Shown: positions 6,154 through 43,437, counted from the whole stretch's first letter. The stretch is DNA of 63,117 nucleotides, filler included, from Anaerolineae bacterium (GCA_029262755.1; 6 parts of 6 records of this genome joined end to end with filler, not necessarily neighbours in it), one strand, 5' to 3'. Notes: generated by a model not told the origin, from the letters alone. A program made the numbers and translations.

Positions 6154-7518
6154 ATGATCATGAAGCGAATCCTCATTGCGGGCGGGGCCTTCGTCGCCGT
6201 CGCGATCCTGTTCGTCGTCGTGACCCTGGCCATCGGTCGTCGCGTCGTCGAACGCGTAGTGGGTCCTGGCGAGGTCGCTGCGCCTGCCGCGCCTGCCACG
6301 TCGGTGCATCGGGACCATCTCTACGGCCGCATCACCACCGTGGACGGCGAGACCTACGAGGGGCGGCTGCAGTGGGGAGGCGAGGAAGAAGCCTTCTGGA
6401 GCGACGACTTCGGCGGTTGGAAGGACGAAAATCCGTGGGCCGGATCGGTGTCGCCCGATCTGCTCATGGAGCGGAACCCCGTGGCGCTGTTCGGGATCGT
6501 CGTCATGCAACGTCAACGGCCGATCGATCTCCGCCGGCCCTTCCTGGCTCGCTTCGGCGACATCGCGCGCATCGATGCCGGGTTGCAGGATATTCGGGTG
6601 ACCCTCAAGAGCGGGGCCGTCCACGAGCTCGACCGTCTCGCCGCGGACGACCTGGCGGATGGCGTGCGCGTGTGGGACGAGCAGCACGGTGTGATCGACC
6701 TCAACGAGCGTGGCATTCGCAGCATCGAGTTCATGGCGAGTGCCGGGTCCGTCTCCCACCCAGACCCCGTCCCCGACCGGCTGCATGGCACGGTGCGCAC
6801 GCGGCATGGACGCTTCACCGGATTCATCCAGTGGGATTGGGAGAAGCGCCTTGGTAGCGACGTCCTCGAAGGCTTGAGCGAGGACGTTGAGGTCAACCTT
6901 CCCTTCGACACCATCGCTGTGATCGCTCGTCACAAGGACGGAGGTGCCCTGGTGACGCTGCGCGATGGCCGCGAGCTCGTGCTCACCGGCACGCGTGATG
7001 TCGGGGACGGCAATCGCGGGATTTACGTCGACGACCCACGCTACGGCCGGGTCCTGATTCCCTGGGAGGCCTTCGTGCAAGTCGACTTTGCGCCGGGGGG
7101 CGATAGCCCCGGCTATGGCGACTTCCCGCCGGGCCGACCGCTGACGGGCAGCGTCGAGACGCGCGACGGTCGGTGGCTCGTCGGCCGGTTGGTCTTCGAT
7201 CTCGACGAGAGCGAGACCACCGAGACGCTCGATGCACCGTCGCAGGGCGTGCACTACATGATTCCGTTTGGTGCAATCGCATCCATCATGCCGTCCTTCG
7301 ACGAGGACGGCGGCTCCCTGAAAGCCTGGGTGCTACTGCACGACGGACAGGATCAGGTTCTCGTGCTCGATCACGGCGGCGACCTTGGCGAGGGCAATGC
7401 CGGCATGCTCGTGTTCGTGGACGGGCATGAACGTCCCGAATACGTTCGCTGGGCCGACGTCGAGCAAATCCGCCTCGACCGTCCGCCCGCGATGGTTCGG
7501 CCGATCGACGAGCGGTAG
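6154..7518 (+). CDS. Membrane-anchored hypothetical protein with three internal repeats
   Basis: N-terminal TM/signal segment; repeats start LYGRITTVDG, LHGTVRTRHG, LTGSVETRDG. Confidence 0.75.
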   Translation: MIMKRILIAGGAFVAVAILFVVVTLAIGRRVVERVVGPGEVAAPAAPATSVHRDHLYGRITTVDGETYEGRLQWGGEEEAFWSDDFGGWKDENPWAGSVSPDLLMERNPVALFGIVVMQRQRPIDLRRPFLARFGDIARIDAGLQDIRVTLKSGAVHELDRLAADDLADGVRVWDEQHGVIDLNERGIRSIEFMASAGSVSHPDPVPDRLHGTVRTRHGRFTGFIQWDWEKRLGSDVLEGLSEDVEVNLPFDTIAVIARHKDGGALVTLRDGRELVLTGTRDVGDGNRGIYVDDPRYGRVLIPWEAFVQVDFAPGGDSPGYGDFPPGRPLTGSVETRDGRWLVGRLVFDLDESETTETLDAPSQGVHYMIPFGAIASIMPSFDEDGGSLKAWVLLHDGQDQVLVLDHGGDLGEGNAGMLVFVDGHERPEYVRWADVEQIRLDRPPAMVRPIDER

Positions 7519-7631
7519 GCGCTATGGGGTCTTGCTGCTGCGCGCATCCATGCACCTCCACGCACTACCGTGCACCGTGGCGCGCCTCGTCGATCATCGA
7601 CCGCGGATGGCACGGCCTGTAGACTGCGCGC

Positions 7632-8667: not shown

Positions 8668-8767
8668 NNNNNNNNNNNNNNNNNNNNNNNNNNNNNNNNN
8701 NNNNNNNNNNNTTAATTAATTAANNNNNNNNNNNNNNNNNNNNNNNNNNNNNNNNNNNNNNNNNNNN
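8668..8767. other. Artificial contig linker
   Basis: N-run, TTAATTAATTAA (stops in all frames), N-run. Confidence 0.99.
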
Positions 8768-9329
8768 GATCAACCAGACGCGCAACGCGATCCAGGCCGA
8801 TGTGCTCAAGCTCATCGCTACCCAAGCCCCGGTGGCCGGCGACGTCCGGCTGCTGACGACCATGCTGGAGATTTCCTCCGAGCTCGAGCGTGTCGGCGAC
8901 TACGCCAAGGGCATCGCCTCGATCTCGCTCACGCTCGGCGGTTGGACCTTCGGCCCCGAGATCGTCGATCTACTTGTGCGTATGGCCGATGCCGCGCGAG
9001 ACATGCTTCGCCGCAGTATCGCCGCCTTCGCCGATGGCGACGCGGACGCCACCGCCGAGATCATCGACCGCGACGACTACGTGGACGGACTCTATAAGGA
9101 GGTGTTTCGGCACGTGGTGGAGCTGGCCGGCCTGCGTCCGGATCGCGGCGCGGAGACCTTCGAGCGCGCGAACTACCTGTTGTGGGTTGCTCACAACCTG
9201 GAGCGCACCGCCGACCGCGCGACAAACATATGCATCCGCGTCGTCTTCACCGCGCGCGGCGAGCTCAAGTCCGCGCACGCATTGGTGGCGGAGTCGCGCG
9301 GGGACGATGCTGCGACGGACCGCGAATAA
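8768..9329 (+). CDS. phoU: Phosphate signalling protein PhoU, 5' truncated
   Basis: LIATQAPVAGDVR...ELERVGDYAKGIA...DDYVDGLY...AHNLERTADRATNICIRVVF. Confidence 0.93.
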
Positions 9330-9374
9330 CAGAGGGAGCGAGGACGAGCGCGGATCGGTGGTGTGCCGCCGCCC

Positions 9375-10607
9375 TCACTGCGCCAACGGCACCGTGAAGC
9401 GGAAGCACGCACCGTTGCGGTAGCTGCGATCCAGCCAGATGCGTCCTCCGTGTCCGTCGACTATGTGACGTGCGATGGCGAGTCCCAGTCCGCTGCCCAC
9501 CGACGCACGCGAGCGGTCGCCACGGTAGAAGCGTTCGAAGATGCGCTCCGCCTCATCGGGCGCGATGCCGGGGCCCTCGTCCTGGACATAGACCTCGACG
9601 TGCTCTTGCCCGGTACCTCCGTCGTCCGGCCCCACCGGTACGTCACGCATGACGCCCACGACCACGGTGGCGTCCGCCCGTGACACGGAGATCGCGTTGT
9701 CGAGCAGGTTGGTGAGCACGCGGCGGATCTGCGGCGCGTCGACCAGGACCATCACTTCAGCCGGGATCCGCACCTGCAGCTTGATGCCCTGCTCGACCAA
9801 CTGCGGCTCGATGCTGCGCTCGGCGTCGGCCACCACGTCGGCCAGCGCGCAAGGGCTGAGCTGCAGCAGCGCCCGGCCCGTCTCGATCCGGTTGAGCTGG
9901 ATGAGACCGTCCGCCAAGCGTTCGAGGATGGTCGCCTGATCCTTGATCGACGCGATCTGCTTCCGCCGGCCCTCGTCTACGCTGCCTTGGTCATCCGGCC
10001 CGTCGAGCAGGGCCTCCACGAGCAGCCGGATCGAGGTCAGCGGGGTCCGCAGATCGTGGGAGATGTTGGCCACCAGGTCGCGCCGCGCTCGCGCCAGCCG
10101 CTCGATCGCCGTATCGTCGCGCAAGCTGATCACGGCCCCGCCGCCGTCCAAGCGTTGCACACGCGCGCGATACACCCGATCGCGGTAGGCGATGGTGTGT
10201 TCGGCAGCGGGCTCTGCCCCCTCGACGTGTTCCACGAGCTCGTTCAGCTCGGCCGAGCGGATGACCGTCCGTAGTTCGGGCGCTCCTTCGATCTTCATGG
10301 CAAACCATTCCTGGGCCACGGCGTTGGCATGGCGCACGCGCTGCGCGGCGTCGAGGACGAGGATCGCCTCGGTCACCACGCTTCCGACGGCTCGCGTCAG
10401 CTCCAGATCGGCCGCGTCGGTGTCCGGTACGTGCGCAGCGTCGAGCCGCGCTCGTGGGGCGCTTCGCCTGCCACCTGGCGTGCGCCGGCCGCGAACGACG
10501 GTCGTCGGTCCGCGCCCTCCGGACCGGCGCCACCGGGCGATGCCTGCAACCAGCAACGCGCCGGCCGCAGCAAGGAAGAGAATCGCTGCGCCGATGCTCG
10601 ATTCCAT
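9375..10607 (-). CDS. Sensor histidine kinase, PhoR/SenX3-like (PAS-HisKA-HATPase)
   Basis: NISHDLRTPLTS H-box, NLLDNA, DEGPGI, IFERFYRGD, GSGLGLAIA. Confidence 0.92.
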   Translation of the reverse strand: MESSIGAAILFLAAAGALLVAGIARWRRSGGRGPTTVVRGRRTPGGRRSAPRARLDAAHVPDTDAADLELTRAVGSVVTEAILVLDAAQRVRHANAVAQEWFAMKIEGAPELRTVIRSAELNELVEHVEGAEPAAEHTIAYRDRVYRARVQRLDGGGAVISLRDDTAIERLARARRDLVANISHDLRTPLTSIRLLVEALLDGPDDQGSVDEGRRKQIASIKDQATILERLADGLIQLNRIETGRALLQLSPCALADVVADAERSIEPQLVEQGIKLQVRIPAEVMVLVDAPQIRRVLTNLLDNAISVSRADATVVVGVMRDVPVGPDDGGTGQEHVEVYVQDEGPGIAPDEAERIFERFYRGDRSRASVGSGLGLAIARHIVDGHGGRIWLDRSYRNGACFRFTVPLAQ

Positions 10608-10631
10608 AGGCGGTCGCCGGCCGTGCCGCGG

Positions 10632-11330
10632 CTAGCCGTCGAAGCGGTAGCCGACGCCGCGAACCGTCGAAATGCGAGTCGGGTTGGAGGCGTCGAGCTC
10701 GATCTTCTGCCGAAGCCAGCGCACGTGGACGTCCACCGTGCGGCTGTCCCCGGCGTAGTCATAGCCCCAGTGTTTCTCGAGCAGGAGATCTCGGCTGAGG
10801 ACTACGTTTGGGTTGCCCATCAGCGCCGCGAGGAGGTTAAACTCCTTGTGGGTCAGGTCAATCTCCGCCCCGGCCAGCGTCACGCGTCGGCTGATCAGGT
10901 CGACGCACAGGTCGCCCGACTCGAGTACGGTCTGCCTGGTTGCCGGCCTCCGGCGCAGCAGTGCGCGCACGCGGGCCAGCAGCTCGCCCGTGCTGAACGG
11001 CTTGGTGACATAGTCGTCGGCTCCGGACTCCAGCCCCACGATCTTGTCCAAGTCGCCCGTGCGTGCCGAAAGCATCAGTACCGGTGTATCTACCTCCGCA
11101 TTGCGCAACGCTCGGCACGCGGAGAGCCCGTCGATTCCGGGCAGCATGACGTCCAGCACGATGAGGTCCGGCGGATCGCGCCGCACGTGCTCCACCAGCC
11201 CGTTCGCGTCCGACAGCTCTTCCACGCCAAAGCCATGCGACGCCAAGCCCTGACCCAGCGTCTCCCGCAACGTACGGTCGTCCTCGACGATCAGGATACG
11301 CTGCAGGCCGGTTGCGGAGGCGTCGATCAT
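10632..11330 (-). CDS. OmpR/PhoB family response regulator
   Basis: ILIVEDD, LDVMLPG, GADDYVTKPF, SRTVDVHVRWLRQKIE, TVRGVGYRF. Confidence 0.95.
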   Translation of the reverse strand: MIDASATGLQRILIVEDDRTLRETLGQGLASHGFGVEELSDANGLVEHVRRDPPDLIVLDVMLPGIDGLSACRALRNAEVDTPVLMLSARTGDLDKIVGLESGADDYVTKPFSTGELLARVRALLRRRPATRQTVLESGDLCVDLISRRVTLAGAEIDLTHKEFNLLAALMGNPNVVLSRDLLLEKHWGYDYAGDSRTVDVHVRWLRQKIELDASNPTRISTVRGVGYRFDG

Positions 11331-11557
11331 GAGAGTCCGGTGGTGACAAGGGCGCGAGAGCCAGGTCCTGGCATGGCTCTTCGGGAGGGCGTGCGGGGAC
11401 GTAGCAAGTATAGGAGGGATTGGGCACCGGGCTGACGGGGCTGTGTTAAATCATCTTCGTGTGACGTGGACGCGATTATCAAGCCACGTCGTTGAACCCG
11501 CTTCCTACTCCCATCGCACAGGCAGCCCAATGCTTTGCGTCCCCGACGCGCTTACCC

Positions 11558-12733
11558 CTACGGCAAGTCGAGAAAGGGCGGTCCGAACACCGGACCGGCC
11601 GGCGCTTTCGACGCCGCCGACGCCCCGGCCGCCTCTACGCCGGCGACATCCACCGCGACTTCGCCGCACGCCGCGCGGCCCAAGGGCAAGCCGAGGACCT
11701 CGATCTGGCTCGGCGGCTCGAAGCCGTCCGCGCAATGCAGGGCGCGTACGGTCGTGCTCGTAGTCAGCGCGTCGGCGGGGACAGGGTCGGCGCGCAGCTG
11801 CAGGTGGGCGAACATCGCGTCGCGGGCGTGGAGGTGTGGTCCGCGCTCTCGGACGGCCGGCAGGCGCTTGAGCGAGACCGTGCCGTAGACGTTGCCTCCG
11901 ATGGCGAGGATCACGCCGGCAGGTTCATCGACGGCCACGACGATGTCGCAGTGCATGCGGGCAGCGCGGCCTTGCTGCTTGCGCCGCTGATCGACCGTCT
12001 CGTAGCCCGAACGGGTGCCGCTGCACAGAAGGTCGCCGGGGCCGGTTGCCGCCTCGCCGAGGTCGTAGGCCACGTAGGCGCTGCTGGGCGCTTGCCCGTC
12101 ACGGGCCTCGATGGCTTGGTCGACGTAGGTCCGGTGGGCGATCGAGTGCCGGAACGTACTGCGCTCACCCAGGCCGGATTCGCACATGACCCAGGAGACG
12201 AAGGCCGCCGACCAAGGATCGCGCCAGCGCGCGTACTGGCCCTCGGCGCGGTTCCAGAGTTCGTCCTGCCGCTCCAGCGCCCAGTCCGCGCCGGGCGTCG
12301 CGGCCCAATAGCCTGCGATAGACGGCGCGAGGCGTTCGAAGGCCGCCACGCGCTCGGGCGTGTAGCCACGGCGCCAGCTCCGTGAGCCGGACGAGCCGCC
12401 GAAGCTTCGTCGGGCAGCAGCACGATCGATCGTGCGGTCCGTGACCGAGAAGCCGAAGAACGCCCACTCCTGCACGGCTGCATCCACGATCCGATGCCGC
12501 GCGGACGCGAGCGGAAGGGCGGGGCAGGCGGTGGACGCAACGCGAAGCGCGCCGAGCTCGCCCGCCACGCGCTCGGACGGTGCGGCAAGGTCGAGGGTCG
12601 TGCTCGGCAAGCGCTCGACGAAGGGTGTGGGGGATTGCGCGTGGGTCGTCGCGGGACCGGCCGCCAGGCCGAGCAATACGGCGAGGCACGTGAAGGCACA
12701 TGTCCGGGTACGGGAACGCAGCATCGTCATCAT
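11558..12733 (-). CDS. Secreted DUF2272-domain (CHAP-like fold) protein
   Basis: Signal peptide; AVQEWAFFG, PWSAAFVSWVM, GDLLC, HCDIVV, AIGGNV. Start codon uncertain. Confidence 0.75.
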   Translation of the reverse strand: MMTMLRSRTRTCAFTCLAVLLGLAAGPATTHAQSPTPFVERLPSTTLDLAAPSERVAGELGALRVASTACPALPLASARHRIVDAAVQEWAFFGFSVTDRTIDRAAARRSFGGSSGSRSWRRGYTPERVAAFERLAPSIAGYWAATPGADWALERQDELWNRAEGQYARWRDPWSAAFVSWVMCESGLGERSTFRHSIAHRTYVDQAIEARDGQAPSSAYVAYDLGEAATGPGDLLCSGTRSGYETVDQRRKQQGRAARMHCDIVVAVDEPAGVILAIGGNVYGTVSLKRLPAVRERGPHLHARDAMFAHLQLRADPVPADALTTSTTVRALHCADGFEPPSQIEVLGLPLGRAACGEVAVDVAGVEAAGASAASKAPAGPVFGPPFLDLP

Positions 12734-12930
12734 GGGATATCCATCCGTGGCGCAGGGGCGGAGCACGGCGGGCTTCATGATAGGGACACGGGCGATCCGA
12801 AACGGTAGGGGCGCGTAAAATCTCTATGGTCGCGTGTCGACATAACGGCGGCGGTTGGGTCCACGCGACGTCCACGTGGCGGCGTGCGGTTCGAACGACG
12901 TATGGACGAGAATCGGGCACTGTCTTGCCC

Positions 12931-14793
12931 CTAGCTGCCAACTTCCTTCGGATCGCCCCAACACGACACCCATCCGTCTGTGCGCAGGCCGCAGCTGAAG
13001 CCCCAGCCCGAGACCACGTCTTGGAAAGTGCCGTAGGGTGGATCGGCCTCACCGCCCTCCGGCTCGATGTCGAAGACGTGGCATGCGACCGTTCGGACTT
13101 CGCGAATCGCGCATACGTGCCCCGTTCCGGTGCTGATGGCCTGATTGGCGCCAATCCCAAAACCCGGCGGAAGCACAGGACCGTTGGCCGGATTACCGCC
13201 CCAGCACAGCAGTGAACCATCGGTCCGAACGCCGCACGTGTAATCGTCTCCGGTGCGGACCGTGCGAAACGTTCCTTCCGGGGACCCGGCTTGTCTCGCG
13301 TGGTTGCTGCCCCAGCACGCGAGCCGGCCGTCCGTCGCGACTGCGCACGCATGTCCAGGGTCGACGCTACTTAGGTCCAGCGCGACGAACGTTCCGTCCG
13401 GTGGATCCAACATGTCCGCATCGCCGCGCCCCCAACATTGGATCGACTGATCTAACGTGAGCGCGCAGCTACTCATCATGCCGACCGAGACTGCGGAGAA
13501 GCGGCCTTTGGGCGGCGCAGCCGCACCGTCCGTATCGCGGCCCCAGCATGTGATCGCGCCGTCGGTTCGAACAGCGCATCCGTGGCGTGGGCCAATGCTT
13601 AGTTGAACGAATAAGCCTGCCGCCGTCGGAGGTAGATCGCGCTCGCCCCGGCCCCAGCACCGCACGCTGCCATCCGTGAGGATTCCGCAGGCATCCGTCT
13701 TCGCGACGTCGATCTGAAGAAACGCGCCTGGCGGCGGCAAGGTCCCTGTGCTCCGGTAGGTCGGCGAAGACCATCAGACCAGCTCCCCTCCAGACAGGAT
13801 GGCACACGTGCTGCTTTTCCATCCGTCGCTGCGACCTCCGTGGGACAGACGCTCGATTCGACTACCGGGCGCGTGGACTTCCGCGATCCACAGCTCGTTC
13901 CAACAGAGTAGGGCGCCGTCGGAACGCAGCCCGCACGCATCGTCAACACCCATGCTGATATGCGTGAAGGTCCCCGGCGGCGGCGGCAGGTCCCCGATCA
14001 CCGCCAGCTTCCAGCAGGCGAGCGTGCCGTCGTATCGAATTCCGCATGCACGGCTGGTGCCGGCCGCAATGGTGCGGAAGGCACCGGCCGGCGGCGTAGG
14101 CACGTAGAGCCCCCAACACTCTACACCGCCATCGGAACGGATCGCGCACGAGAAGGTCGTGCCCGATACGAGTCCGGAGAAACCGCTTCCGCTAGGAGCG
14201 TCAAAGGGGTCGCCCAGGAGATCCCAACACGAAATCGCGCCACCGACATGCAACGCGCACGCGTGATTGTGGCCGGCGCGCACGAGCATCATGTCTTCGC
14301 CGGGCACGGGGATCTCCATCTCGCCTTCCCCTCGCGCGCCAAGGTGCCAACAGGCCGCACTCCCCGATCGCCCGAGCGCGCACGCAAGCTCTCCGCCGAC
14401 CGAGATCTGGCGGTATTCGCCGGAGGGAACGCGCGGGACGGGTCTACGTTCCACGAGGCTGAAGCACTCGACGAATCCCCCGCGTCGTAGCCCGCACGTC
14501 AGCGGTCGCTCGCTATCGCCGCCGACGCTCACGTCGATCCACGCCCCGGGGATGCCCACCGGTCGTGGGCTCGCGTCGCGCAACACCTGGGGCAGGAACG
14601 CGCAATGCCCGGTGCGCAGCAGCGTGCCGTTGGGCCCGCGTCGCACGCACGTCGCCTGCGCCGACGCCGAGCTTGTAGCCAGGGCGAGGGCAAGGACCGC
14701 AGCGAGCAGCGCCACGGGGAGGGCACCGGTGACGGCCGATCGGCGGCCGAGTGCGGGAGCGGCGCGCGTCGGGTCGGGGCGGACTTCGTTCAT
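12931..14793 (-). pseudogene. Secreted RCC1/BLIP-II-like beta-propeller repeat protein split by one in-frame TGA (pseudogene, error or readthrough)
   Basis: ORFs 13774-14793 and 12931-13740 are in the same frame, 11 sense codons apart; continuous (H/T)xCxxxxDGxxxCWG repeats; the TGA at 13774-13776 replaces the Cys of a CW motif. Confidence 0.8.
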
Positions 14794-15409
14794 GGCGTGG
14801 GGCCTTGGGTGGGTGGTTGCCGGTGGCGAGGGCAGAGGTGTAGACCCGGGTGCCGCGTCTTGGACGAGCCACCTCGGACAGCAAGCGGAGTGCCGCTACT
14901 CCTGCATGCGGTCGAGCTAGTGATCGAGGACGGTCACGACGATGTCCGTTCGGCGGACCATAGCGCCGCTTCCGCGCAGCCAGTATGCCTCCGCGCTGCC
15001 ATCGAGCTGCAGTGGCGCTTCCTTGGTGAAGGCGCCCTGCCCTCGGCAGACTCGTGCGTCCCGGGCGTCGATGTCGGGGTTGGAGCTTTCGAGGCGGAGA
15101 GGCCGATCTTCGTAGTTTCGCTCGTGCCGCGCCGCGCGTCGAAACGATCCGTATTGGGCGCGGGGCCCCGCGTGACGCATGATGGAACGGTGGATGGGCG
15201 TACGAGAGCCATAAACGGCGAGCTGCCGCCGCCCTGCGCGCGTGAAATTCTGCCCAGTAACCGGCCCGCGTCTTGGTGATGGCGCCGCCGGATGATTCGG
15301 TCTCAGTCCGTGAGCGACCCGGAGGGCCGCGTTGTCACCTGGAGCACGAGCATAACCGGTCGGACCCAGCAGGGGCGATCCGAGAAGCACAACGGAAAGG
15401 CATGCCTCC

Positions 15410-15793
15410 ATGCGCAACACGCCCACGTTCACCGAATCCTACCCTATTCAAGAAGATGTCATGGCCCTGCCCGTCAAAGACCTCGACGCCACGTCGGAGT
15501 GGTACTGCGAGCACTTCAACATGACGGAGGTCGAACGGCGCAAGAAGCCGAACAAGGCCGTCATCCTCGAGCGCGATGGCGTCCGGATCGGCTTTGCGAT
15601 CAACGGCGACAATCCCATCCACGATGGCGCCTCCATTCTCGTCGCCAACCTCCTCGGGCTCCGAAAGGAACTCGAGGCCAAGGGCCTCAAGAACGGCAGC
15701 TGGCGCGTCGACGAGCGCGACGGCCGCAAGTACCAGGTCCTGCTGCTCGCGGTGCCGGACGGCTTGTCCTTCTACTTCCACGAGCCGCTCTAA
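15410..15793 (+). CDS. VOC/glyoxalase-like protein
   Basis: ALPVKDLDATSEWY and PDGLSFYFHE patterns; 127 aa. Confidence 0.75.
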   Translation: MRNTPTFTESYPIQEDVMALPVKDLDATSEWYCEHFNMTEVERRKKPNKAVILERDGVRIGFAINGDNPIHDGASILVANLLGLRKELEAKGLKNGSWRVDERDGRKYQVLLLAVPDGLSFYFHEPL

Positions 15794-16017
15794 ACTTGAT
15801 GGCGGGACCAGCCTCACGATCGGCGTCGAGACTTCAACTGCATCCAACGCCGCGCTTCGACGGCGCCGCAGGACACTCTGACTGGGTACAACGCTTCGAG
15901 CTGATTCACAACGCCACTCCAAATGCGGGCTGCCGACCCAACTCACGGGAATCCAGATCTCTCACGTGACTACTCGTGTCGATGAGGATGGCCCCAGCGC
16001 CATCCCGCCGCCGATCA

Positions 16018-16431
16018 TCAACCCCTTCGCCAATCCTCGACCCGCAGTTCGTCAAAGATCGTGAAATCGCGCACGTTGCGCGACACCAGCGTCAATTGGT
16101 TGACCGCTGCGATGGCTGCGATCTGTCCGTCCACGAAGGGGGGCGTGCGGCCGATGGCCGACAGTCTTGCGCGTTCGCGCGCATGCCACTCGGCTGCGCG
16201 GGCGTCGTACTCCAGGATGGGCAGCTCGAGGTAGATCACCCTCAAGTAGTCGGTGAGGAAGTCGCGGCGCCGTGAATCAGGCAAGCGAAAGCAGCCGCAC
16301 CACAGCTCGTGCCACACGGGCGCGCCGGTGGCGATCTGACCGGCGTATGTCTCGAGGCGATCGAGGATGGCTGGGTCGGGGCGCCCGCGCACGGGCTCCG
16401 AGAGAACGTTGGTGTCGAGCAGGAAGCGCAT
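16018..16431 (-). CDS. Type II toxin, VapC/PIN-domain ribonuclease
   Basis: MRFLLDTNVLSE, HEL, DGQIAAIA, LVSRNVRDF. Confidence 0.93.
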   Translation of the reverse strand: MRFLLDTNVLSEPVRGRPDPAILDRLETYAGQIATGAPVWHELWCGCFRLPDSRRRDFLTDYLRVIYLELPILEYDARAAEWHARERARLSAIGRTPPFVDGQIAAIAAVNQLTLVSRNVRDFTIFDELRVEDWRRG

Positions 16432-16715
16432 CAGTCCTCGTACCTGAAGTCACGGCCAGGCGATGGGTCACGAGGGAAAAGCGTGTCGGGATCGCTATCG
16501 GACCCGTCGATCTTGTAGCGCGCGCGCACCTCGCGAACGGCTTGGGCAAGACTGGTGCGTGGCTGCTCCGTCAGGCGACGGAACTCGTCGGCCGAGACCA
16601 ACACCACGACCGGTTGACCGCGGCGTGTCAGCTCGATGGGCTCGCCCTGCTCTGCCGCACGCACCAGCTTGGACAGGTTGTTGCGTGCCTCGGCGATGGA
16701 TACCTGTTGGCGCAT
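16431..16715 (-). CDS. Type II antitoxin, Phd/YefM family
   Basis: VSIAEARNNLSKLVRAAEQGEPIELTRRGQPVVVLVS; stop overlaps the toxin start. Confidence 0.93.
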   Translation of the reverse strand: MRQQVSIAEARNNLSKLVRAAEQGEPIELTRRGQPVVVLVSADEFRRLTEQPRTSLAQAVREVRARYKIDGSDSDPDTLFPRDPSPGRDFRYED

Positions 16716-16740
16716 GCTTTACCTCCGCTGGACTCGGAGC

Positions 16741-16792
16741 GCCATCTAGATGGCTATCTCGATGAGTATAGGTCGCGCGGCGAGGGGGGCAA
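16741..16792 (-). promoter_or_regulatory. Toxin-antitoxin promoter with palindromic operator
   Basis: Minus strand TTGCCC-N16-TATACT (16787-16792, 16765-16770); perfect palindrome GCCATCTAGATGGC at 16741-16754. Confidence 0.65.
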
Positions 16793-16901
16793 GGGTCTTC
16801 ACTCCCACAGAGTCGCTGCCAGCACGAGCGGTTGAATCCCACATCCGCGGCGAGTTGTGCCTGTGGTGGCTATAGCACATCGCTCAAGGCATCCTACCCG
16901 A

Positions 16902-19900
16902 ATGACCAACGCCTTCATCAGCTACGCCCACGCCGACGCCGCCTTCGCCAACCGCCTCGCCACCGCGCTGCCCGGGCTGGGCATCGAGCCGTGGATCGAC
17001 CGCGACGGGATTCACGGCGGCGCACGCTGGAGCTCATCGATCCAGCAGGCGCTACGTTCGTCCGACGTGCTCATCCTCGTCCTGACTCCAGCAGCCATGG
17101 CCTCGTCGAATGTCGAGGACGAATGGCAGTACGCGCTCGACAAGGGCAAGCCGGTGCTGCCGGTGCTGGTCGAGCCGACCGATGTGCACTTCCAGCTCGG
17201 GCGGATTCAGTACACGGACTTCCATGGGCAGCCCTTCGAGACGGCGCTGGCGCAATTGGCCGAAAGCGTGCGACGGGCACTCGAGAGCGTGGGAGGGCCA
17301 GGTGCCCGGGGAGCCGGTGACGACCTTGGGGACGGCAGTGATCACGGTTCCCCGAGCGACCGTGCCTCCGCCGAAGGGACACGCGCCGGCCACGGCGCCG
17401 CGCGCTCCATCGGCCCGCCCTCCGGCACCGTCACCTTCCTGTTCACCGACATCGAGGGCAGCACCGAGCGCTGGGATGTGTTCCCCGACGCAATGCGCGT
17501 CGCCTTGGAGCGGCACGACGTTCTGATGCGCACGGCGGTCGCCCAGAACGGGGGGCACGTCTTCAAGACCGTGGGCGACGCGTTCTGCGCGGCCTTCGCC
17601 ACCGCCGGTGCCGGGCTGGCCGCCGCGATCGACGCGCAGCGGTCCATCGTCGCCGAGGACTGGTCGGCCTACGGCGAGGGTTTCTCGCCGATCCTCGTCC
17701 GCATGGGGCTGCACACGGGCGAAGCAACCGAACGGGGTGGCGACTACTATGGGCAGCCGGTGAACCGGGTGGCGCGTCTGGAGTCGGCGGGGCACGGGGG
17801 CCAAGTGCTGTTGTCCGCGCCGACCTATCACATCGTGCGCGAGCATCTGCCTGAAGGTTGCATGCTCCTCGACCGCGGCGAGCACCGGCTGAAGGACCTG
17901 CGCCAAAGCGAGCACATCTTCCAGCTCGAGGGACCCGGTCTGCCCAATGTCTCGACCCCGCCCGTCACCGCCGAGGCGCTGCACCCGCGCGACCGCGTGC
18001 GCGTCGTCGAGCCTGAGTCGGGCGAGCGAGATCGCACGGCCGACGCCGCCGACGACGTCGACGGCACCAGCGACCCGGCCGCGGACCCCGCAAACCCCTG
18101 GTCGCGCCTCGAAGCCACCGTTCTCTCCAATGAGGGCGAGTCCGTCACCCTCACGCCGGCCGAAGCCCAGGCGCTCGCCCGCCACAAGCCGGCCGTTTGG
18201 CGCGAGTACCGCCTGGGCCGCATCGCCGAGTGGAGCCAGCCGCGCTTCCGTCTCGACGGCCGCTTCGTCGGGCTGTCGTTGCTCATCGACCAGGGCGAGG
18301 AGGCGGTGCAGGGTCGGTGGCAGGCGAAGGAGGAACAATACGATGATCTCGGCGAGCTCCTAGACGGCACGGACGACCCGGCGGTCGTGGTGCTCGGCCC
18401 GCCGGGTGGCGGCAAGAGCACGCTGCTACGGCGGCTTGAGCTGGACACGGCGATCGCCGGCCTGCGCGGCGAGGGCGACTCGGCCGATCGGGTCACCTTC
18501 TTCATCTCGCTCAATACCTATAAGCCGATCCGGCCCGGCGACCCGGTGCCAGCTCCCGGCGAGTGGCTCTCCGACCGCTGGGCCACCCGCTCCCCCGATC
18601 TCCCACCGCTCGGCGATCTGCTCGCCGAGGGCCGAGTCACGCTCCTTCTCGACGCGCTCAACGAGATGCCGTCGGCCGGCGAGTCCGACTTTCATGAGCG
18701 GGTCGGCTTATGGAAGGACTGGCTCGTGCAGCTGGCCGGCGCGCACTCGGGCAACCGGGTGGTCTTCAGCTGCCGCAGCCTCGACTACAGCCAGTCGCTC
18801 TCGACCCCGGATCTGCGCGTGCCGCAGGTTCGGATCGAGCCGCTGAGCGACGAGCAGGTCGAGGACTTTCTCGCGCTCTACAGCCCTGGCCACCATCGCG
18901 AGATCTGGCAAGACCTCGAAGGCAGCCCGCAGCTCGAAGTCCTTCGCAGCCCGTACTTCCTGGCGCTCTTGGTTGAGCAGGTCGACGCCAGCGGCGAGAT
19001 GCCTGCCGGCCGGGCCGGGCTCTTCACGGGCTTCGTGCGCCAGGCTCTCAGGCGGGAGGTTGAGCGTGGCGGCGAGCAGTTCAAGCCCGGTGCGCTTCTG
19101 GCCGGCCGGGACCTAAAGCGATTGACCGCATGGAAGTGGAAGGGCCCGTACGATCTGCCGGAGCGGGGACTCCTGATCCCGAAGCTCGCCTCGTTCGCGC
19201 ACGCGATGCAATCCGACCGTGCCGACGGCGAGCGGTCGCAGGTGCGGATCGACGTCGACGATGCACTCGAGCTGCTCGATGATCCGAACGACGAGGCGCT
19301 CCTGGCGGCCGGTGAGGCGCTGGCGGTGCTGGACGAGGATCATGCGGCCGATGAGCTGATGTACATCCATCAGCTGGTGCAGGAGTACTTCGCGGCACGG
19401 CTGCTTGCGCGGGAGCCGGACCCGGAGCTGGTGAGCGTGGAGTGGCGAGCCGCGAGCATCTCGCCGAGCGTCGAGGATGTGATCGATCAGCTCGATCCCG
19501 CGGATTCGCTGCCTTCCCTGCCCGGCACCGGGTGGGAGGAGACGACGATCCTGGCGGCGGCGATGAGCGACGACGCCCCGGCGCTCCTGCGCGGGGTGAT
19601 GCAGACCAACCTAGCGCTTGCGGGCCGCGCGGCGGCGCAGCCGGAGCTGCTGCCGCAATTGCCGAAGGAACTGCTTGACGAGCTCCGTTGGGCGGTGGTG
19701 CATCGCAGCCGTGACGGTGCAGCGGACCTGCGCGACCGGATCGCGTGCGCGCACGTCCTCGGTGATCTCGGAGATCCGCGCCTCGAGCGCCGCACAGGGC
19801 CGCACGGTGAGTATTTGCTGCCGCCGCTGGTCGAGATCCCCGCCGGGACGTATCCGATCGGGGACGACGAGCCGATCACGACCCCAGGGGGGACGTGGAC

Positions 19901-20831
19901 CGACCACGTGCCGCGCCACGAGGTTCAGATCGAAGCCTTCGAGATCGGCCAGTTCCCGGTCACCAACGCCGAGTGGCGATGCTTCCAGGAGGCCGGTGGC
20001 TACGAGCATGAGCGCTGGTGGGACACCGAGGCCGGCCGGGCGTGGCGGCGAGGCGAGAACACGGCGGCGGGAATCCATGCTGGGGTGAAGTGGTTCGTGT
20101 CCCGTTGTCGAGCGCGACTAGAGACGATGGACGATCTTCTCGCTGCCGGGACCTGGGATGAGGAGATGTACCAACGCGCGCAGCGGCGACTGGCGATGAG
20201 CGAGGACGAACTGGACGCGCATCTGCGTGAGCTCTACCCGGGTGGTCGTCACACGGAGCCGGCGTTCTGGCGCGATTCACGGTTCAACCAACCATCCCAG
20301 CCGGTGGTCGGCATCAGCTGGTACGAGGCGAGGGCGTACGTAAGCTGGCTCTCTGCGCAATCAGGGAGTGCCTTCCGGCTTCCGACGGAGGTCGAATGGG
20401 AGGCGGCGGCACGGGGCGGGGCCGGAAGACGCTTTGCCTACGGTGACGACTTCAATACGCTCAGCGGCAACACGGCTGAGACGCACATCCGTCAGACGAC
20501 ACCGATCGGCGTGTTCCCGGATGGCGACACATCCGAGGGGGTTGCAGGCCTGACCGGCAACGTCTATGAGTGGACGTCGAGCGCGTACGGGGAGGATCTG
20601 GATGCCACGGAGTTCCCATACCCCTATGATCCACTTGATGATCGAGAGGATCCTGAGGCACCGGCCGGGTGCCAGCGGGTGTCGCGCGGCGGTTCGTGGA
20701 TCGGCGTTCAAACGAACGCGCTGGCTGCGTACCGTGCCGACGCTCATCCGGCCGACCGTATTCTCAACTACGGCTTCCGGGTGGTGGTGTGCCGTAGCGC
20801 CTTCCTGTCCTCCCCGGATTCTGAGTCCTGA
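16902..20831 (+). CDS. TIR + class III adenylate/guanylate cyclase + NACHT NTPase + FGE-sulfatase (CLec fold) protein
   Basis: AFISYAHAD...SNVEDEW (TIR); FLFTDIEGST, KTVGDAF, RMGLHTG, VNRVARL (cyclase); GPPGGGKST and LLLDALNEM (NACHT Walker A/B); FPVTNAEW, PVVGISWYEA, FRLPTEVEWEAAA, GNVYEW, RGGSW, GFRVV (FGE-sulfatase). Confidence 0.93.
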   Translation: MTNAFISYAHADAAFANRLATALPGLGIEPWIDRDGIHGGARWSSSIQQALRSSDVLILVLTPAAMASSNVEDEWQYALDKGKPVLPVLVEPTDVHFQLGRIQYTDFHGQPFETALAQLAESVRRALESVGGPGARGAGDDLGDGSDHGSPSDRASAEGTRAGHGAARSIGPPSGTVTFLFTDIEGSTERWDVFPDAMRVALERHDVLMRTAVAQNGGHVFKTVGDAFCAAFATAGAGLAAAIDAQRSIVAEDWSAYGEGFSPILVRMGLHTGEATERGGDYYGQPVNRVARLESAGHGGQVLLSAPTYHIVREHLPEGCMLLDRGEHRLKDLRQSEHIFQLEGPGLPNVSTPPVTAEALHPRDRVRVVEPESGERDRTADAADDVDGTSDPAADPANPWSRLEATVLSNEGESVTLTPAEAQALARHKPAVWREYRLGRIAEWSQPRFRLDGRFVGLSLLIDQGEEAVQGRWQAKEEQYDDLGELLDGTDDPAVVVLGPPGGGKSTLLRRLELDTAIAGLRGEGDSADRVTFFISLNTYKPIRPGDPVPAPGEWLSDRWATRSPDLPPLGDLLAEGRVTLLLDALNEMPSAGESDFHERVGLWKDWLVQLAGAHSGNRVVFSCRSLDYSQSLSTPDLRVPQVRIEPLSDEQVEDFLALYSPGHHREIWQDLEGSPQLEVLRSPYFLALLVEQVDASGEMPAGRAGLFTGFVRQALRREVERGGEQFKPGALLAGRDLKRLTAWKWKGPYDLPERGLLIPKLASFAHAMQSDRADGERSQVRIDVDDALELLDDPNDEALLAAGEALAVLDEDHAADELMYIHQLVQEYFAARLLAREPDPELVSVEWRAASISPSVEDVIDQLDPADSLPSLPGTGWEETTILAAAMSDDAPALLRGVMQTNLALAGRAAAQPELLPQLPKELLDELRWAVVHRSRDGAADLRDRIACAHVLGDLGDPRLERRTGPHGEYLLPPLVEIPAGTYPIGDDEPITTPGGTWTDHVPRHEVQIEAFEIGQFPVTNAEWRCFQEAGGYEHERWWDTEAGRAWRRGENTAAGIHAGVKWFVSRCRARLETMDDLLAAGTWDEEMYQRAQRRLAMSEDELDAHLRELYPGGRHTEPAFWRDSRFNQPSQPVVGISWYEARAYVSWLSAQSGSAFRLPTEVEWEAAARGGAGRRFAYGDDFNTLSGNTAETHIRQTTPIGVFPDGDTSEGVAGLTGNVYEWTSSAYGEDLDATEFPYPYDPLDDREDPEAPAGCQRVSRGGSWIGVQTNALAAYRADAHPADRILNYGFRVVVCRSAFLSSPDSES
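20676..20789 (+). other. Candidate DGR variable region (VR)
   Basis: RVSRGGSW...GFRVV frame in which the canonically Asn positions carry NNY codons (ATC GGC GTT; GCC GAC GCT; GCC GAC; ATT CTC AAC TAC). Confidence 0.6.
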
Positions 20832-20868
20832 CTTTCTGATTTCTGAAGTTCTGAGCTTCTGAATCCTG
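20819..20868 (+). repeat. Short tandem repeat of (T/C)CTGA with 7-8 nt period, about 7 copies
   Basis: TTCTGAGTCCTGACTTTCTGATTTCTGAAGTTCTGAGCTTCTGAATCCTG spans the stop codon. Confidence 0.8.
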
Positions 20869-20985
20869 CTGTTGCAGTTGTTGTGAGGCTGTAGCCTGAG
20901 CCGACGCCAGGCGGCGGCGTTAACCGCGATGCGGATTCGGAGCCATCTGTCAAAGCGCTCTGGCGCCTTGAGGGTCGAGAACAAG

Positions 20986-21117
20986 ATGAAGACGTTCAAG
21001 AATCTCTATCCGGAACTCTGCAGCTTCGAGAACCTGTTTCTGGCCTGGCGGAGGGCGGCCCGGGCAGCATCGCGCGCAATCACGAGGATATCGATGCGGC
21101 GGTCGTTCGGTTCGTGA
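20986..21117 (+). pseudogene. N-terminal remnant of a DGR-type reverse transcriptase
   Basis: MKTFKNLYPELCSFENLFLAWRRAAR matches the typical DGR RT start (MKxxxNLYxxIxxFENLxxAxxxARxGK); similarity ends after about 26 codons; no YxDD motif. Confidence 0.75.
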
Positions 21118-21289
21118 GCACCACCGGTCGCGACACCTGGGGTCTATCGAATGTGACCGGCGGCAAGGCCCTCTCCAAGTTCGGTTCCCCCACGGCCTGC
21201 CCGTACCATGAACCCGCTCGTCAGATCCCATGGTCTCCACGTACGGGGATTTCCCATTTCGATCGCTTGATTGAACTAAAGGCAACACC

Positions 21290-21432
21290 TTGAACAATCC
21301 TCTGACGCAAACGACGGCCGTGCCAGATGGCCGGCGTGATTCCGCGGCCGCCGCAAGCGCCCTCGACCGACCGGTGGACTCCCGGTTGGCGGTCGAGGTC
21401 GCTCGCCGGCGGACCTTCGCCATCATCTCCCA
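21290..21432 (+). CDS. prfC: Peptide chain release factor 3, N-terminal fragment at contig end
   Basis: EVARRRTFAIIS(H) is the RF3 signature just before the P-loop. Confidence 0.8.
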
Positions 21433-21532
21433 NNNNNNNNNNNNNNNNNNNNNNNNNNNNNNNNNNNNNNNNNNNNTTAATTAATTAANNNNNNNNNNNN
21501 NNNNNNNNNNNNNNNNNNNNNNNNNNNNNNNN
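21433..21532. other. Artificial contig linker
   Basis: N-run, TTAATTAATTAA, N-run. Confidence 0.99.
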
Positions 21533-31338: not shown

Positions 31339-33399
31339 GGGCCGCTCCCGGTCCTGAGGTGGACGGCCGCGAGGCCGAGGCTCAGCAAGCTGGTCAGGAT
31401 CCCGAGCATAACCGACGGCGGGCGGTAGGTCCATTCGATGCGCCAAGAACCCGCCGGCAACCACACGGCGGGCAGCACGCCGTAGGCCGCGAAGGGCGGT
31501 GGCCGTAGCACCTGTCCATCCGCTTCCGAAGCGCGAGCGTGCCAGCCTCCGCTGGGATCCCATGCACTCGACCACACGACCCACGCGCCTTCCGGCAGCA
31601 CGGCTTCGATGGCGGCTCGGCCAGGATCAAGGCCCACGAGCTGTACGCTGCCCACGACCCCGTCCATCCGCGGAGTGCACATATCGGCCTCCGGCCGATC
31701 GGTCCCGTTCGTCGATCTGCCGGACGCGCGTCCTTGTGGATCGACCACGACAACGGAAAGCGGGTCCAGATCCGCTTCCGGCAGCCAATCGGCAATCGGA
31801 GATACGCATCGTGTGGCGGGCGTAGTCCACACCGGCGGTGCGGGCAGGCCGATCTCGTAGAGTGTCCCCTCCGCGGCCACGTCGCTGAGCGGCGCAAGCA
31901 GGCCGGCTTCGGACTCGTTTGGTGGGCGCGTACGCAGAACGTAGCGCACACCGAGCAAGCGCCACCACGCGATCTCCGGGGCCTCGTCCACCAAACGCTG
32001 CACGCCGGCCAAGTGCAAGGGGCTATCGCCCGTCACGTCATAGAGCCCGTGCATCATCGCCGCGTTCGCGCCGCCGGGCAGCGCACCCTGGCTGCTCACG
32101 CGACCGTCCTTCGCGCGTTGCTCGAGCGCCGCCAGGATCGGCCCGCTTTGGGAAGTCGGGGCCGGCCACGGTCCCAGCGCGTGCCCTGTGTTGGCCGAGA
32201 GCAGGTCCAAGGCGCAGACGAGCACGAGCACCAGGCCGGTCGCGCGAACACGTGCGCCCCCGGTACGCTTCGGTCGACGCGTCACCAGCCAAGCGACGGC
32301 TATAGCGGAGAGCAGCGCCCAGAGCGCACCGTGTGCCATGGCATCGCGCATCGGCCAGTGGCCGGTGAGGGCGGCGCCTTCGAGCGGCACGAGCGTTCGC
32401 GCAGTAAGAACGCTAAGCACGACACCCACCGCTGCGAGCAGCCACGCGGGCAAGAGCTCGCCGTGCCTGCGGGCATCCTCGTCGCGCTTGTCGCGCGCCC
32501 GCAGCAGCGCCTCCGCGCTCAATCCCGCCGCCACCGCCAGTCCCAGGGCTACCAGCACGGCGGCGCGTTCCTGATGGCGGAAGGGCAACAGATCGGGGGC
32601 GACGGCAACAACCGCGGAGACGAGCGGCCCGTTGCCGCCGAGGCTCCACAACCAACCGACGCCTGCCAGCGCCGCCCAGTATCGGCTGGCCGGCGCGCGT
32701 ACGAGACCCCAGGCCACAAGTCCGAGGGGCAGTAGCCCCACATAGAGCGGAGACCAGCGGCTGAGGCCGTGCGGCGCCACCATCTGCGCGACGTCGGCAA
32801 TCGGAAGCCCGGCGAGTCGCTCCGCTCGGCTCAGCGCCCGCGCGGACACCTCGACAAAGCGCAAGGACGGTAGCCACTGCACGGCCGAAAGGCCGGCGGC
32901 CGCAACGAGCCACAATGCGGCGCCACGAGCCAGGGCGCCACGAGCAACGGTTGCGCGAGCAACCGTGGCGCGAGCAACCGTGGCGCGAGCCACGCCGGCT
33001 TGCGCTTTAGAGCGCGCCGGTCGGCCGCCGCGGACGAGCTCCGCGGTCAGCCACGCGGCGCCCGCCGCCATGCCGAAGGCGGTTGTCTGCGGATGTCCGG
33101 CCAAGAGCGACAGCGCCGTCGCGCCGGCGGCCGAGAGCGCGCCGCGTCGACGAAGTATCTGATCGCGGCCTCGTGTCGCGATGACAAGTCCCCACAGGAT
33201 GCCCGGCAGCCATGCTGCGGAGTCGAGCACCGCGAGCTGGTCGACGGGATAGCCCGTGAGAAAGCTGGAGAGCGCAAACGTCACGCCCGCCAGCAGCGCC
33301 GCGGACCGGCGACCGCCGAGGGCGCGGGCGAGCCCGTAGGTCAGTGCGCCGGCCAACGCCAAATGAGCGACGGCCTCCGCGACGAGGGCGACGAGGGGC
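31308..33399 (-). CDS. YfhO-like polytopic membrane protein (GT-C-like glycosyltransferase), 5' truncated
   Basis: AWLP, LLAGHPQ, LSAVQWLP, LYVG, PFRHQER, LLGVRYV, GWHAR, YRP motifs. Confidence 0.75.
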
Positions 33400-33499
33400 N
33401 NNNNNNNNNNNNNNNNNNNNNNNNNNNNNNNNNNNNNNNNNNNTTAATTAATTAANNNNNNNNNNNNNNNNNNNNNNNNNNNNNNNNNNNNNNNNNNNN
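33400..33499. other. Artificial contig linker
   Basis: N-run, TTAATTAATTAA, N-run. Confidence 0.99.
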
Positions 33500-34276
33500 C
33501 CACGCAGCCACGCGGAACTCGGGCGCAGCGTAGCGCTCCGCCGCGGCGCGAATAAACGCACTCCACGCCGCCTCGGACTGCGCCACCGGCTCCTGATAAC
33601 CGAAACCGCATCGGTACACCAACGCCCACGACGGATAGTCAACGACGCTGATCACCACATCCATGCCCGCGCGCGCATAGTCTGCGATGTGTTGATCCGC
33701 CTCCGCCCAGTCGTACACCGGGGGATCGTGACGCTCGGCTTCGATCTCCGACCAGTGGATATGCGTACGGATCGATCGAAGCCCCGCGCCGCGGGCCCGC
33801 GGCAGCTCGATGATCGTGTTCTCGCGGTGGCGGGTAGGATCGGCCTCCATCGCGAACTGGGTGCCCCACCAGCGCGTCGCTTCCCACGCGCCAGGCGCCC
33901 TGCGCGTTCCCCACGGCAGGAAGACGGATTCGCCGGCCGATCCGGTTGGCGTCGCCGTTCCCTCCGTGATCGCGGTGCTCGTAGCGGTCATCGTGGCCGC
34001 AGGCGTGCTGGTTTGACTGGCCGCGGTCGTCACGGTGGCGCTCGGTGCCGCGGTCATCGAGGCGACGGCCGTCACCGTCGCGCCAACGGTCGCTGTCACC
34101 GGCGCGCTCGGCGTCGTGGTGCTCAACACGCGCCCGGCCCTGTCCACGCCACCGGACGCAAGCGGGCTATCCTCGCTAGGACGCGAGCGCGCCACGAAGA
34201 GTGCCGTTCCAGCAACCAGCAGCAGCAACAAACCCCATGCGGCGGGAATCCAGGCTCGACGGGCATTCGGGTTCAC
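33500..34276 (-). CDS. Secreted clan GH-A-like glycoside hydrolase, 3' truncated
   Basis: TM anchor, Thr/Ala-rich linker, IRTHIHWSEIE..YDWAEAD..DYPSWA; paralog of the neighbouring gene. Confidence 0.7.
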
Positions 34277-34513
34277 GGGAACTCACCTCGGGGAGACGTC
34301 GGAGGGCTCGGCTGGTACGCGGGCGGCTGTTTCGATCGGTCGGTATCCGAGTCTCGGTGCCCATTTCCCAACAGACACGTTCGAAGCGCGACCAACGTGG
34401 CGGGCGTCGTGGCCCACAGGTCGTGGACGGAGCGAGACCGATTCCGGTTACGGTCGTGCGAATCGCGGCGCAGGGAATTCGGCGGAGGTGTAGGAAGCGT
34501 GGAGGGAGGGCGA

Positions 34514-38213: not shown

Positions 38214-38281
38214 GGCACGGAGGGATCGGGCGACGGCGGCATCGAAGCGCCGCCCATCTCCGCTAGACGGTTTCTTTCGCG

Positions 38282-39153: not shown

Positions 39154-39255
39154 GAGGCCGCAAGTATACCGGCCGGAGCATTCGGACCCGAACTCCAGAC
39201 GGCCGGGGCAACCGCGGCGCCATGCTATGATGGCCGCCCCTCCAGGAGGCAGCAG

Positions 39256-39552: not shown

Positions 39553-39554
39553 CG

Positions 39555-42800: not shown

Positions 42801-42851
42801 GTTGACGGGTAGAGGCGAAGGCGTGTCCGGCCCGGTACCGGTGGTCTTGCG

Positions 42852-43244: not shown

Positions 43245-43437
43245 GGATAGCTCCTCATGGAAAGATGGAGACGGGCGGATGGCGCGCAGCGAAGCAGCAG
43301 CCTGCATCTGCGCGTTCGCGCACGTGAGCGCGATGCGCACCCCCACTGCCTAGGATAGGCCCGCGCAAAGTCGCGTCAATTCCTTGACCCTCCTCGGGGC
43401 CGGTCCCAGAATGCGCGCTCGCCAAGGAGGCGCTGCC

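Follow-up and report, generated by a model that had tools for sequence, protein, structure and literature searches.

What does a bacterium gain from a protein that joins two signaling enzymes, a NACHT NTPase and a lectin-fold sensor in one chain, and is the specificity of that sensor still being rewritten by the genome that carries it? These questions are raised by one gene in a 63,117-nt stretch of DNA from an Anaerolineae bacterium (GCA_029262755.1), the whole of which we call the window. Its single frame is open on the plus strand from 16857 (GTG) or 16902 (ATG) to 20831, and since the alignments with homologues start at the ATG at 16902 we take 1,309 amino acids as its length. With somewhat better than even confidence, we believe that the product is an intact receptor of the signal transduction ATPases with numerous domains (STAND) type, similar to the nucleotide-binding leucine-rich repeat (NLR) receptors, that it belongs to a filamentous-type Chloroflexota bacterium, and that the mechanism and defense role set out below are the right ones for it. 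From its sequence, the variable region (VR) of the sensor looks to have once been diversified by a diversity-generating retroelement (DGR) whose cassette has since been deleted, and the VR now appears to be frozen. The receptor belongs to a large family of paralogues with a core of cyclase, NACHT and FGE-type domains, to which the TIR domain is a rarer addition.

The layout is tripartite, with a TIR domain and a cyclase at the N-terminus, a NACHT module in the center and an FGE/lectin domain at the C-terminus, and it is the same across homologues. An earlier note, made from the window itself, had proposed this effector, NACHT and sensor arrangement of a STAND receptor as well as a single four-domain polypeptide with intact catalytic motifs. 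Both proposals hold up: Pfam returns the domains in that order, and the TIR glutamate, the six cyclase residues and the Walker A and B motifs are all found. The note had also suggested a domain-architecture search and structure prediction as a check, and these give the four Pfam domains and an adenylyl cyclase match. The AlphaFold2 (AF2) model of residues 1-365 has a mean predicted local distance difference test (pLDDT) score of 83.5 and consists of two folded domains and a disordered linker at residues 133-170. Its top Foldseek matches are Ma1120 and the T. brucei adenylyl cyclases; there is no TIR among the matches listed.

The evidence for the cyclase is the most detailed. Class III cyclases depend on metal, adenine-specifying and transition-state residues, and D183 (TDIEG), K222 (FKT), D226 (VGD), D281 (GGDYYG), and N288 and R292 (both in NRVAR) align with those of the adenylyl cyclase Ma1120 (expectation value, E, 2.4e-18). 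The predicted fold agrees with that of Ma1120 at a Foldseek TM-score (target) of up to 0.94. The pair of lysine and aspartate is of the ATP type, so cyclic AMP (cAMP) is the predicted product. Judged by these residues, the cyclase is ATP-type and not Pycsar-like, and the analogy with Pycsar drawn in the earlier note is weak, as PycC matches at E 4.3e-4 versus 2.4e-18 for Ma1120. The domain is present in 114 of the 120 best homologues, and all six residues are canonical in 105 of these 114. As a separate observation, P0005, a paralogue with the same four domains (C223:7866-11726 in this genome, G000), has lost three of the six residues (ERDANR versus DKDDNR) while keeping the TIR glutamate, and may be a cyclase-dead variant that works through its TIR only.

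A profile of 23 TIR domains, built partly on loci that were found by their TIR match and that hold a TIR alone or a TIR followed by an FGE domain rather than the full architecture, matches the TIRs of SARM1, AbTir, Cat1 and SPARTA in the PDB. E74 (VEDEW) is invariant in all 23 rows. In the profile-to-PDB alignment it stands opposite the glutamate of SARM1 (..HKEIV..) and of Cat1 (..DELE..), which we take to be the catalytic residue of TIR NADases. Set apart from the receptor itself, other Chloroflexota genomes supplied 80 loci (L013-L092), of which about 31 show a closely related TIR match followed 0.3-1.1 kb on, on the same strand and with no NTPase between, by an FGE match; these may encode putative short TIR-lectin proteins.

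The NACHT match is more modest, at 31.3 bits against a cut-off of 26.7, and the Walker A lysine K505 and the Walker B aspartate D584 are kept in 120 of 120 homologues. The FGE-fold or lectin domain named in the earlier note is confirmed at the C-terminus by Pfam (1.4e-44). The PDB matches of this sensor include ToxD, EgtB, FGE and Treponema TvpA. It carries the VR scaffold RGGSW...YR...GFRVV, with the conserved GFRVV at the end of the VR.

The size of the family is plain from the genome itself, a metagenome-assembled genome (MAG) of 5.06 Mb in 428 contigs that is 84% complete. There are 24 tblastn matches to the receptor protein on 21 contigs, and in 11 of the 24 the open frame is broken off by the end of a contig. 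The full TIR-cyclase-NACHT-FGE architecture is found on C277, which holds the receptor gene, and on C218 (75%), C223 (68%) and C30 (cut by the contig end), and copies of cyclase-NACHT-FGE without the TIR lie on C60, C328 and C218. Beyond this genome, the receptor finds matches at E <= 1e-20 in 35 of the 41 related genomes, all 16 members of the same family among them, and a single genome can have as many as 19. In the protein database, 7,862 of 8,000 scored candidates match at E <= 1e-3; the named homologues there come from Caldilineae, Anaerolineae and Ardenticatenia MAGs, which places the organism in the Chloroflexota. Among the best 120 homologues, seven have all four domains, one has TIR-cyclase-NACHT without FGE, and nearly all the others are cyclase-NACHT-FGE. 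The pair of TIR and cyclase (about 60% identical) also heads an NB-ARC/TPR protein in this genome and in P0139, and related cyclases head STAND proteins with TPR and WD40 repeats.

A quick tree of 153 cyclase domains, from a search that was left unfinished, bears on how the TIR came to be where it is. To account for the 11 rows with a TIR the tree requires 8 changes, of which well-supported branches force at least 4, with the qualification that a truncated gene call may lie behind some of the rows counted as lacking a TIR; one subclade of 37 rows contains 10 of the 11. We considered a single origin as a mobile TIR-cyclase cassette and rejected it, since the tree demands several changes in the TIR. 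At least four of these changes being well supported, the TIR is better seen as an add-on that has been repeatedly gained or lost, with the cyclase-STAND as the constant part.

The history of the sensor is easiest to read from the relatives, where DGR-type reverse transcriptase (RT) genes directly adjoin genes of this family. At 14 of the 15 fetched loci with a DGR-type RT there is an adjacent FGE-domain match to the receptor, and 7 of these reach into the NACHT region. The most complete case, and the only relative with the full architecture beside an intact DGR, is L153 (G004:C64). Its TIR-cyclase-NACHT-FGE protein matches receptor residues 1-1280 at 53% identity and is encoded upstream of the RT, at a distance of about 150 nt, and the locus has both RVT_1 and bAvd. 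Repeat pairs of 119-147 nt that resemble a template repeat (TR) and its VR are present in 10 of the 15 loci. It is the hallmark of DGRs that mismatches between TR and VR are biased to adenines. In 7 of the 8 ungapped pairs, 16-23 of 17-27 mismatches fall at adenines of one copy; the eighth pair resembles two VRs. The gene order in the relatives is target (with its VR), RT, Avd and TR. That the sensor domain belongs to a DGR-targeted family, as had been claimed, is thus borne out by complete cassettes with adenine-specific mismatches in related genomes.

The receptor's own VR carries the same mark. Compared with six TRs of related DGRs it matches at 69 of 169 adenines of the TR, as against 143 of 196 cytosines, 158 of 205 guanines and 64 of 102 thymines, in alignments that are not independent of each other. 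Its identity to P0003, a protein 81% identical, is 23 of 36 within the VR and 224 of 270 in the rest of the domain. Between P0002 and P0003 the two least conserved stretches are inter-domain linkers and not the VR, so on its own this comparison is weak evidence on the VR.

Next to this VR only a fragment of the cassette remains. The RT remnant begins 154 nt past the stop of the receptor gene, similar to the distance of about 150 nt in L153, whose intact RT matches it at residues 3-20 with 61% identity by tblastn. It abuts a short piece of debris, and the sequence that the debris resembles elsewhere in the genome (C164:14941-15046) is the 3' end of a 346-amino-acid open reading frame (ORF; Pfam Beta-lactamase 4.7e-48). 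The junction at 21065-21170 looks like a scar of deletion or rearrangement. Ten sequencing runs were available as assembled contigs, with X1 the probable source run. A contig from X1, made by a second assembler, spans 19711-21400 with 0 differences, and because it bridges the junction of RT and debris this junction is not the quirk of one assembler. Some of the constant lectin domain is covered by contigs from X2-X4, which include neither the VR nor the RT remnant. The 106-nt piece by itself was also seen standing alone in a contig from run X3. A Rfam search of 20700-21433 gave only a sub-threshold miRNA match, which we take as chance. The end of the contig, at about 21300-21433, resembles what we take to be the start of prfC (peptide chain release factor 3), with the motif ..RRRTFAIIS...

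The rest of the genome tells a similar story. RVT_1 has 0 matches in the 428 contigs of this assembly, Avd was not found in it at its 84% completeness, and no template repeat matching the VR was found in its 5.06 Mb. There is a second RT remnant, at C425:3475-3768, which corresponds to residues 251-348 at 49% identity and is preceded by unrelated sequence; no TR lies downstream of it. Together the remnants on C425 and C277 suggest a genome in which the DGRs have decayed. The earlier note held that specificity is set by DGR mutagenesis, which is not supported for this locus at present, where 27 RT codons are left, with no TR and no RVT_1 found in the assembled genome. Its title called the protein hypervariable, which was apt historically, given the adenine signature in the VR, and is not apt at present, with the cassette gone.

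The coordinates of the receptor, its parts and its surroundings are collected here.

Table. Features of the receptor gene and its surroundings (window coordinates unless a contig is named)
Feature	Position	Strand	Basis or remark
Receptor ORF, 1,309 amino acids: TIR, class III cyclase, NACHT, helical spacer, FGE/C-type-lectin sensor	16902..20831	+	Intact frame, Pfam
TIR domain, residues 5-119, candidate catalytic Glu E74	16914..17258	+	Pfam TIR_2 E 6.1e-28
Disordered linker rich in Gly/Asp/Ser/Ala, residues 133-170	17298..17411	+	pLDDT <50, AF2; poorly conserved relative to P0003
Class III nucleotidyl cyclase, residues 174-343; D183, K222, D226, D281, N288, R292	17421..17930	+	Pfam Guanylate_cyc E 2.1e-15
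NACHT NTPase, residues 495-657; Walker A GPPGGGKST (K505), Walker B LLLDALNE (D584)	18384..18872	+	PF05729 E 2.2e-07
FGE-sulfatase/C-type-lectin sensor, best stretch residues 1119-1295	20256..20786	+	Pfam E 1.4e-44
Former DGR VR, ~120 nt, apparently frozen	20671..20790	+	Adenine signature relative to foreign TRs
DGR RT remnant, first ~27 codons; ORF then enters unrelated sequence and stops after 45 codons	20986-21066	+	Sequence, tblastn
Debris, 106 nt, directly adjoining the RT remnant; 3' end of a gene of the PF00144 (beta-lactamase/serine hydrolase) family	21065..21170	+	80% identical to C164:14941-15046
Phd/YefM antitoxin, divergent from receptor gene	16431..16715	-	Pfam PhdYeFM 1.2e-17
PIN-domain toxin, overlapping the antitoxin stop at 16431	16018..16431	-	Pfam PIN 7.6e-09; single copy in genome
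NB-ARC/AAA_16 + TPR protein, 1,356 amino acids, with TIR+cyclase head	G000 C255 (L175:1837-5907)	-	NACHT gene nearby on C255
Contig joins (~100-nt N blocks around TTAATTAATTAA), n=5	~8668-8767, 21434-21532, 33396-33499, 46719-46822, 50750-50853

It is important to realize that the 63-kb window is a chain of separate MAG contigs joined by linkers of N and TTAATTAATTAA. Because these runs join separate contigs, gene neighborhoods cannot be read across them, and the real neighborhood of the receptor gene is contig C277 only, 12,665 nt at window positions 8768-21433. The DEAD/DUF3516 helicase and FG-GAP/ASPIC genes to the right of 21433 lie on other contigs and were dropped as neighbors; contig C279, for example, occupies window positions 33500-46722. 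From left to right C277 holds PhoU, a histidine kinase, a response regulator, a DUF2272 protein, two RCC1-repeat proteins, ORFs without a family, the PIN/Phd pair, the receptor gene and the debris. The divergent toxin-antitoxin pair reported earlier is real, with adjacent Phd/YefM and PIN genes as expected of type II. The small defense island that the same note suggested here is not supported: PADLOC matched 0 of 6 neighbors tested, the other neighbors with Pfam matches are not defense genes, and the PIN/Phd pair, whose linkage is unconserved, occurs beside 0 of 174 other fetched loci and nowhere else in this genome. On another of the joined contigs there are 15-nt tandem repeats in at least 21 register-shifted copies (55375-55834) inside an ORF at 55279-56511 on the plus strand.

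How might such a receptor work? Class III cyclases act as dimers and TIR domains as assemblies, and both need self-association. We propose that a ligand would bind the now-fixed lectin surface and that the NACHT module would then oligomerize in an ATP-dependent manner. Oligomerization would gather the N-terminal domains, so that the cyclases could dimerize and make cAMP, and the gathered TIRs could assemble and cleave NAD+, either to deplete it or to produce a signal. The cAMP could act in trans on the proteins of this genome that bind cyclic nucleotide monophosphates (cNMP), among them CRP-like proteins, an MscS-type channel and a patatin/NTE-like lipase. There are 13 matches to cNMP-binding domains in the genome, and CRP-like, MscS and patatin fusions are among the 8 ORFs scanned. 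On C155, C384 and C359 (L168-L170) cNMP-binding domains are fused to a patatin/NTE-like lipase, to an MscS-type channel and to tandem CRP-like regulators, and we regard these proteins as candidate readers of STAND-made cAMP. At least 9 of the 12 class III cyclase matches in the genome are on STAND proteins, which ties cAMP signaling closely to the receptor family and also feeds the non-immune alternative considered below. The role of the receptor is most probably in defense or conflict, as abortive infection or as containment within a filament.

Several points weigh against this account. The family is known here from sequence alone, and most of its members have the cyclase as their sole output. 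PADLOC matches the TIR and, weakly, PycC only, with none for the NACHT or the sensor. Those neighbors that have a Pfam match are not from defense families, the adjacency of the PIN/Phd pair is not conserved, and Pfam finds no gene for a cNMP-binding protein on C277. The cyclase residues are degenerate in the paralogue P0005. L153, the best full-architecture protein with a linked DGR, may be damaged or misassembled, since its VR (7490-7616) has 7 gap positions relative to the TR and its target ORF stops inside the VR; possible causes are damage to the target, or VR variants collapsed into one during assembly. The VR of the receptor itself has been seen in assembled contigs only, and with the assembly at 84% in 428 contigs an RT and a TR could sit in the missing part. 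Because there are cyclase-only outputs and CRP-like receivers are present, ordinary cAMP signaling is a live alternative. In that case the family would be the main cAMP source of the cell, the lectin would sense environmental, developmental or kin ligands, the TIR would be accessory, and the readout would go through CRP-like and other cNMP-binding proteins. The constant core of cyclase, NACHT and lectin without a death effector fits such a role well, as do the conserved cyclase residues (105 of 114), the concentration of class III cyclases on such STANDs (at least 9 of 12) and the surrounding genes without a defense-family match. Its receivers would be the tandem-cNMP CRP-like regulators, and cNMP domains are also found on a methyltransferase, an aldehyde dehydrogenase and NDH2. 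However, the focal copy has a TIR with a conserved glutamate, and the DGR linkage, paralogue expansion and module shuffling are as in immune receptor families. Published comparisons, in the portions of text we draw on, also place cyclase-STANDs and DGR-diversified NACHT-lectins among conflict systems. We therefore regard a purely non-immune receptor as unlikely, though it deserves to be taken seriously.

The other alternatives concern the sensor and its fate. The receptor could be a relic, decaying into an inactive pseudogene after the loss of its DGR, and the deleted cassette, the loss of cyclase residues in a sister paralogue and the presence of so many copies, which may make any single one dispensable, would all suit this. 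Yet all 1,309 codons form an open frame, none of the catalytic residues checked has been lost and the VR still ends in its GFRVV scaffold, and we find decay improbable. Conversely the DGR could still be active in trans, with an intact RT, Avd and TR lying in sequence that the assembly misses and the protein hypervariable today. The incomplete assembly leaves room for it, repeated family genes do break contigs (the 11 cut frames among 24), and contigs from other samples leave the VR uncovered. Published DGRs can have remote targets, with the TR possibly elsewhere in the genome (PMC7159879, in the part consulted). However, the VR has no TR-like match in 5.06 Mb, both RT traces in the genome are fragmentary (residues 3-20 and 251-348), and the local RT is truncated and fused to foreign debris across a junction that an independent assembly of the same run bridges. 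We consider an active DGR quite improbable. There is also the public name of the homologues, "SUMF1/EgtB/PvdO family nonheme iron enzyme", which together with the sequence likeness to FGE and EgtB would make the C-terminal domain an enzyme and the whole protein a regulated modifying enzyme. The catalytic cysteine pair of FGE was not found in the sensor, where ..LCHESYC.. of FGE (6s07) stands opposite ..IGVQTNAL.., and since the pair is missing this domain is not an FGE enzyme. Both cysteine positions are filled by VR residues other than cysteine, in the very stretch that DGRs diversify in the relatives, and the non-enzymatic variable protein TvpA is matched too, which makes an enzyme very improbable indeed. 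For annotation this matters well beyond one gene, as thousands of public homologues bear that name though they are without the FGE cysteines.

Returning to the receptor as an NLR-like defense protein, we can imagine a larger picture, which we hold only tentatively and think more doubtful than not by some distance. The Chloroflexota would keep a germline repertoire of at least a dozen NLR-like receptors, tuned now or once by DGRs, that raise a cAMP alarm read by patatin, MscS and CRP proteins, possibly along the filament. A subset with a TIR, this receptor included, would add to the diffusible alarm a cell-autonomous kill switch that cleaves NAD+, making a two-tier response from one chain, and loss of the DGR would fix a useful specificity and turn an adaptive receptor into an innate one. 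If the mechanism proposed above for the receptor holds, the family would show that bacterial NLR-like receptors can signal by ordinary cAMP, whether alongside direct killing or in its place. The family would further offer, in one lineage, a natural series from DGR-diversified to fixed sensors in which to ask how hypermutated specificities get hard-wired. With its tandem TIR and cyclase output on one STAND scaffold, the receptor is also a compact model in which to test enzymes activated by proximity.

How much of this is new? The closest published systems are the DGR-diversified NACHT- or nSTAND1-linked C-type lectin (CLec) "antigen sensors", some with a TIR, that Dore et al. (PNAS 2024, PMC10907252) describe in multicellular bacteria including filamentous chloroflexi, and for which Kaur et al. 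(eLife 2020, PMC7159879) provide a conceptual frame. As far as these texts describe them, the STAND-CLec sensors share with the receptor a central STAND NTPase and a C-terminal FGE-type lectin with a VR; some have N-terminal TIR or peptidase effectors, and they are multi-copy in filamentous or aggregating bacteria. The relatives of the receptor, like these sensors, hold the full RT-Avd-TR cassette. Unlike them, the receptor has had its DGR deleted and carries an N-terminal class III cyclase (the main text of PMC10907252 has 0 occurrences of "cyclase"), and its gene has no adjacent peptidase, adaptor or MoxR/vWA component.

The cyclase half of the protein has its own precedents. A recent preprint (bioRxiv 10.64898/2026.08.12.744502) describes an "immune clade 1" of cNMP cyclases, predicted to be immune, that form fusions with NACHT and AP-ATPase, and actinobacterial proteins of cyclase, NB-ARC and TPR architecture are described in PMC2447327. 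In the passages available, both resemble the receptor in having a class III cyclase N-terminal on a NACHT or AP-ATPase chain. The preprint text differs in that it mentions no FGE/lectin sensor or DGR ("formylglycine", "FGS" and "diversity-generating" occur 0 times), and its passages on immune clade 1 do not describe an extra TIR in the same chain as a cyclase-STAND. The bNACHT and Avs proteins (bioRxiv 10.1101/2022.07.19.500537; Nature 2026, PMC13581612) follow the same logic of effector, NTPase and sensor, and FGE-sulfatase-like sensors occur on defense-associated STANDs according to the text of PMC13581612. They differ from the receptor in lacking a cyclase, as far as the main text of PMC13581612 goes ("cyclase" 0 times), and no PADLOC model matches the receptor NACHT.

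Pycsar and Pucsar put a cyclase into one defense logic with a cNMP-activated TIR or TM effector, and Pucsar, in which cyclase-made cGMP activates a cNMP-binding TIR protein (bioRxiv 10.64898/2026.08.12.744502, in the sections available), pairs a cyclase with a TIR NADase. There the pair is two proteins and the TIR binds the cNMP, whereas the receptor has both enzymes on one STAND chain and no cNMP-binding domain. Neither a single chain combining TIR, cyclase, NACHT and FGE nor a decayed DGR next to such a chain was found in the literature text consulted, although the architecture may be shown in the 2026 preprint (Figure 1A and Table S1) and in Fig. S11 of the supporting information (SI) of PMC10907252. 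Our reading of the receptor is therefore a reasonable one that has already been anticipated, since DGR-diversified NACHT-lectin sensors and cyclase-STAND fusions are both in print.

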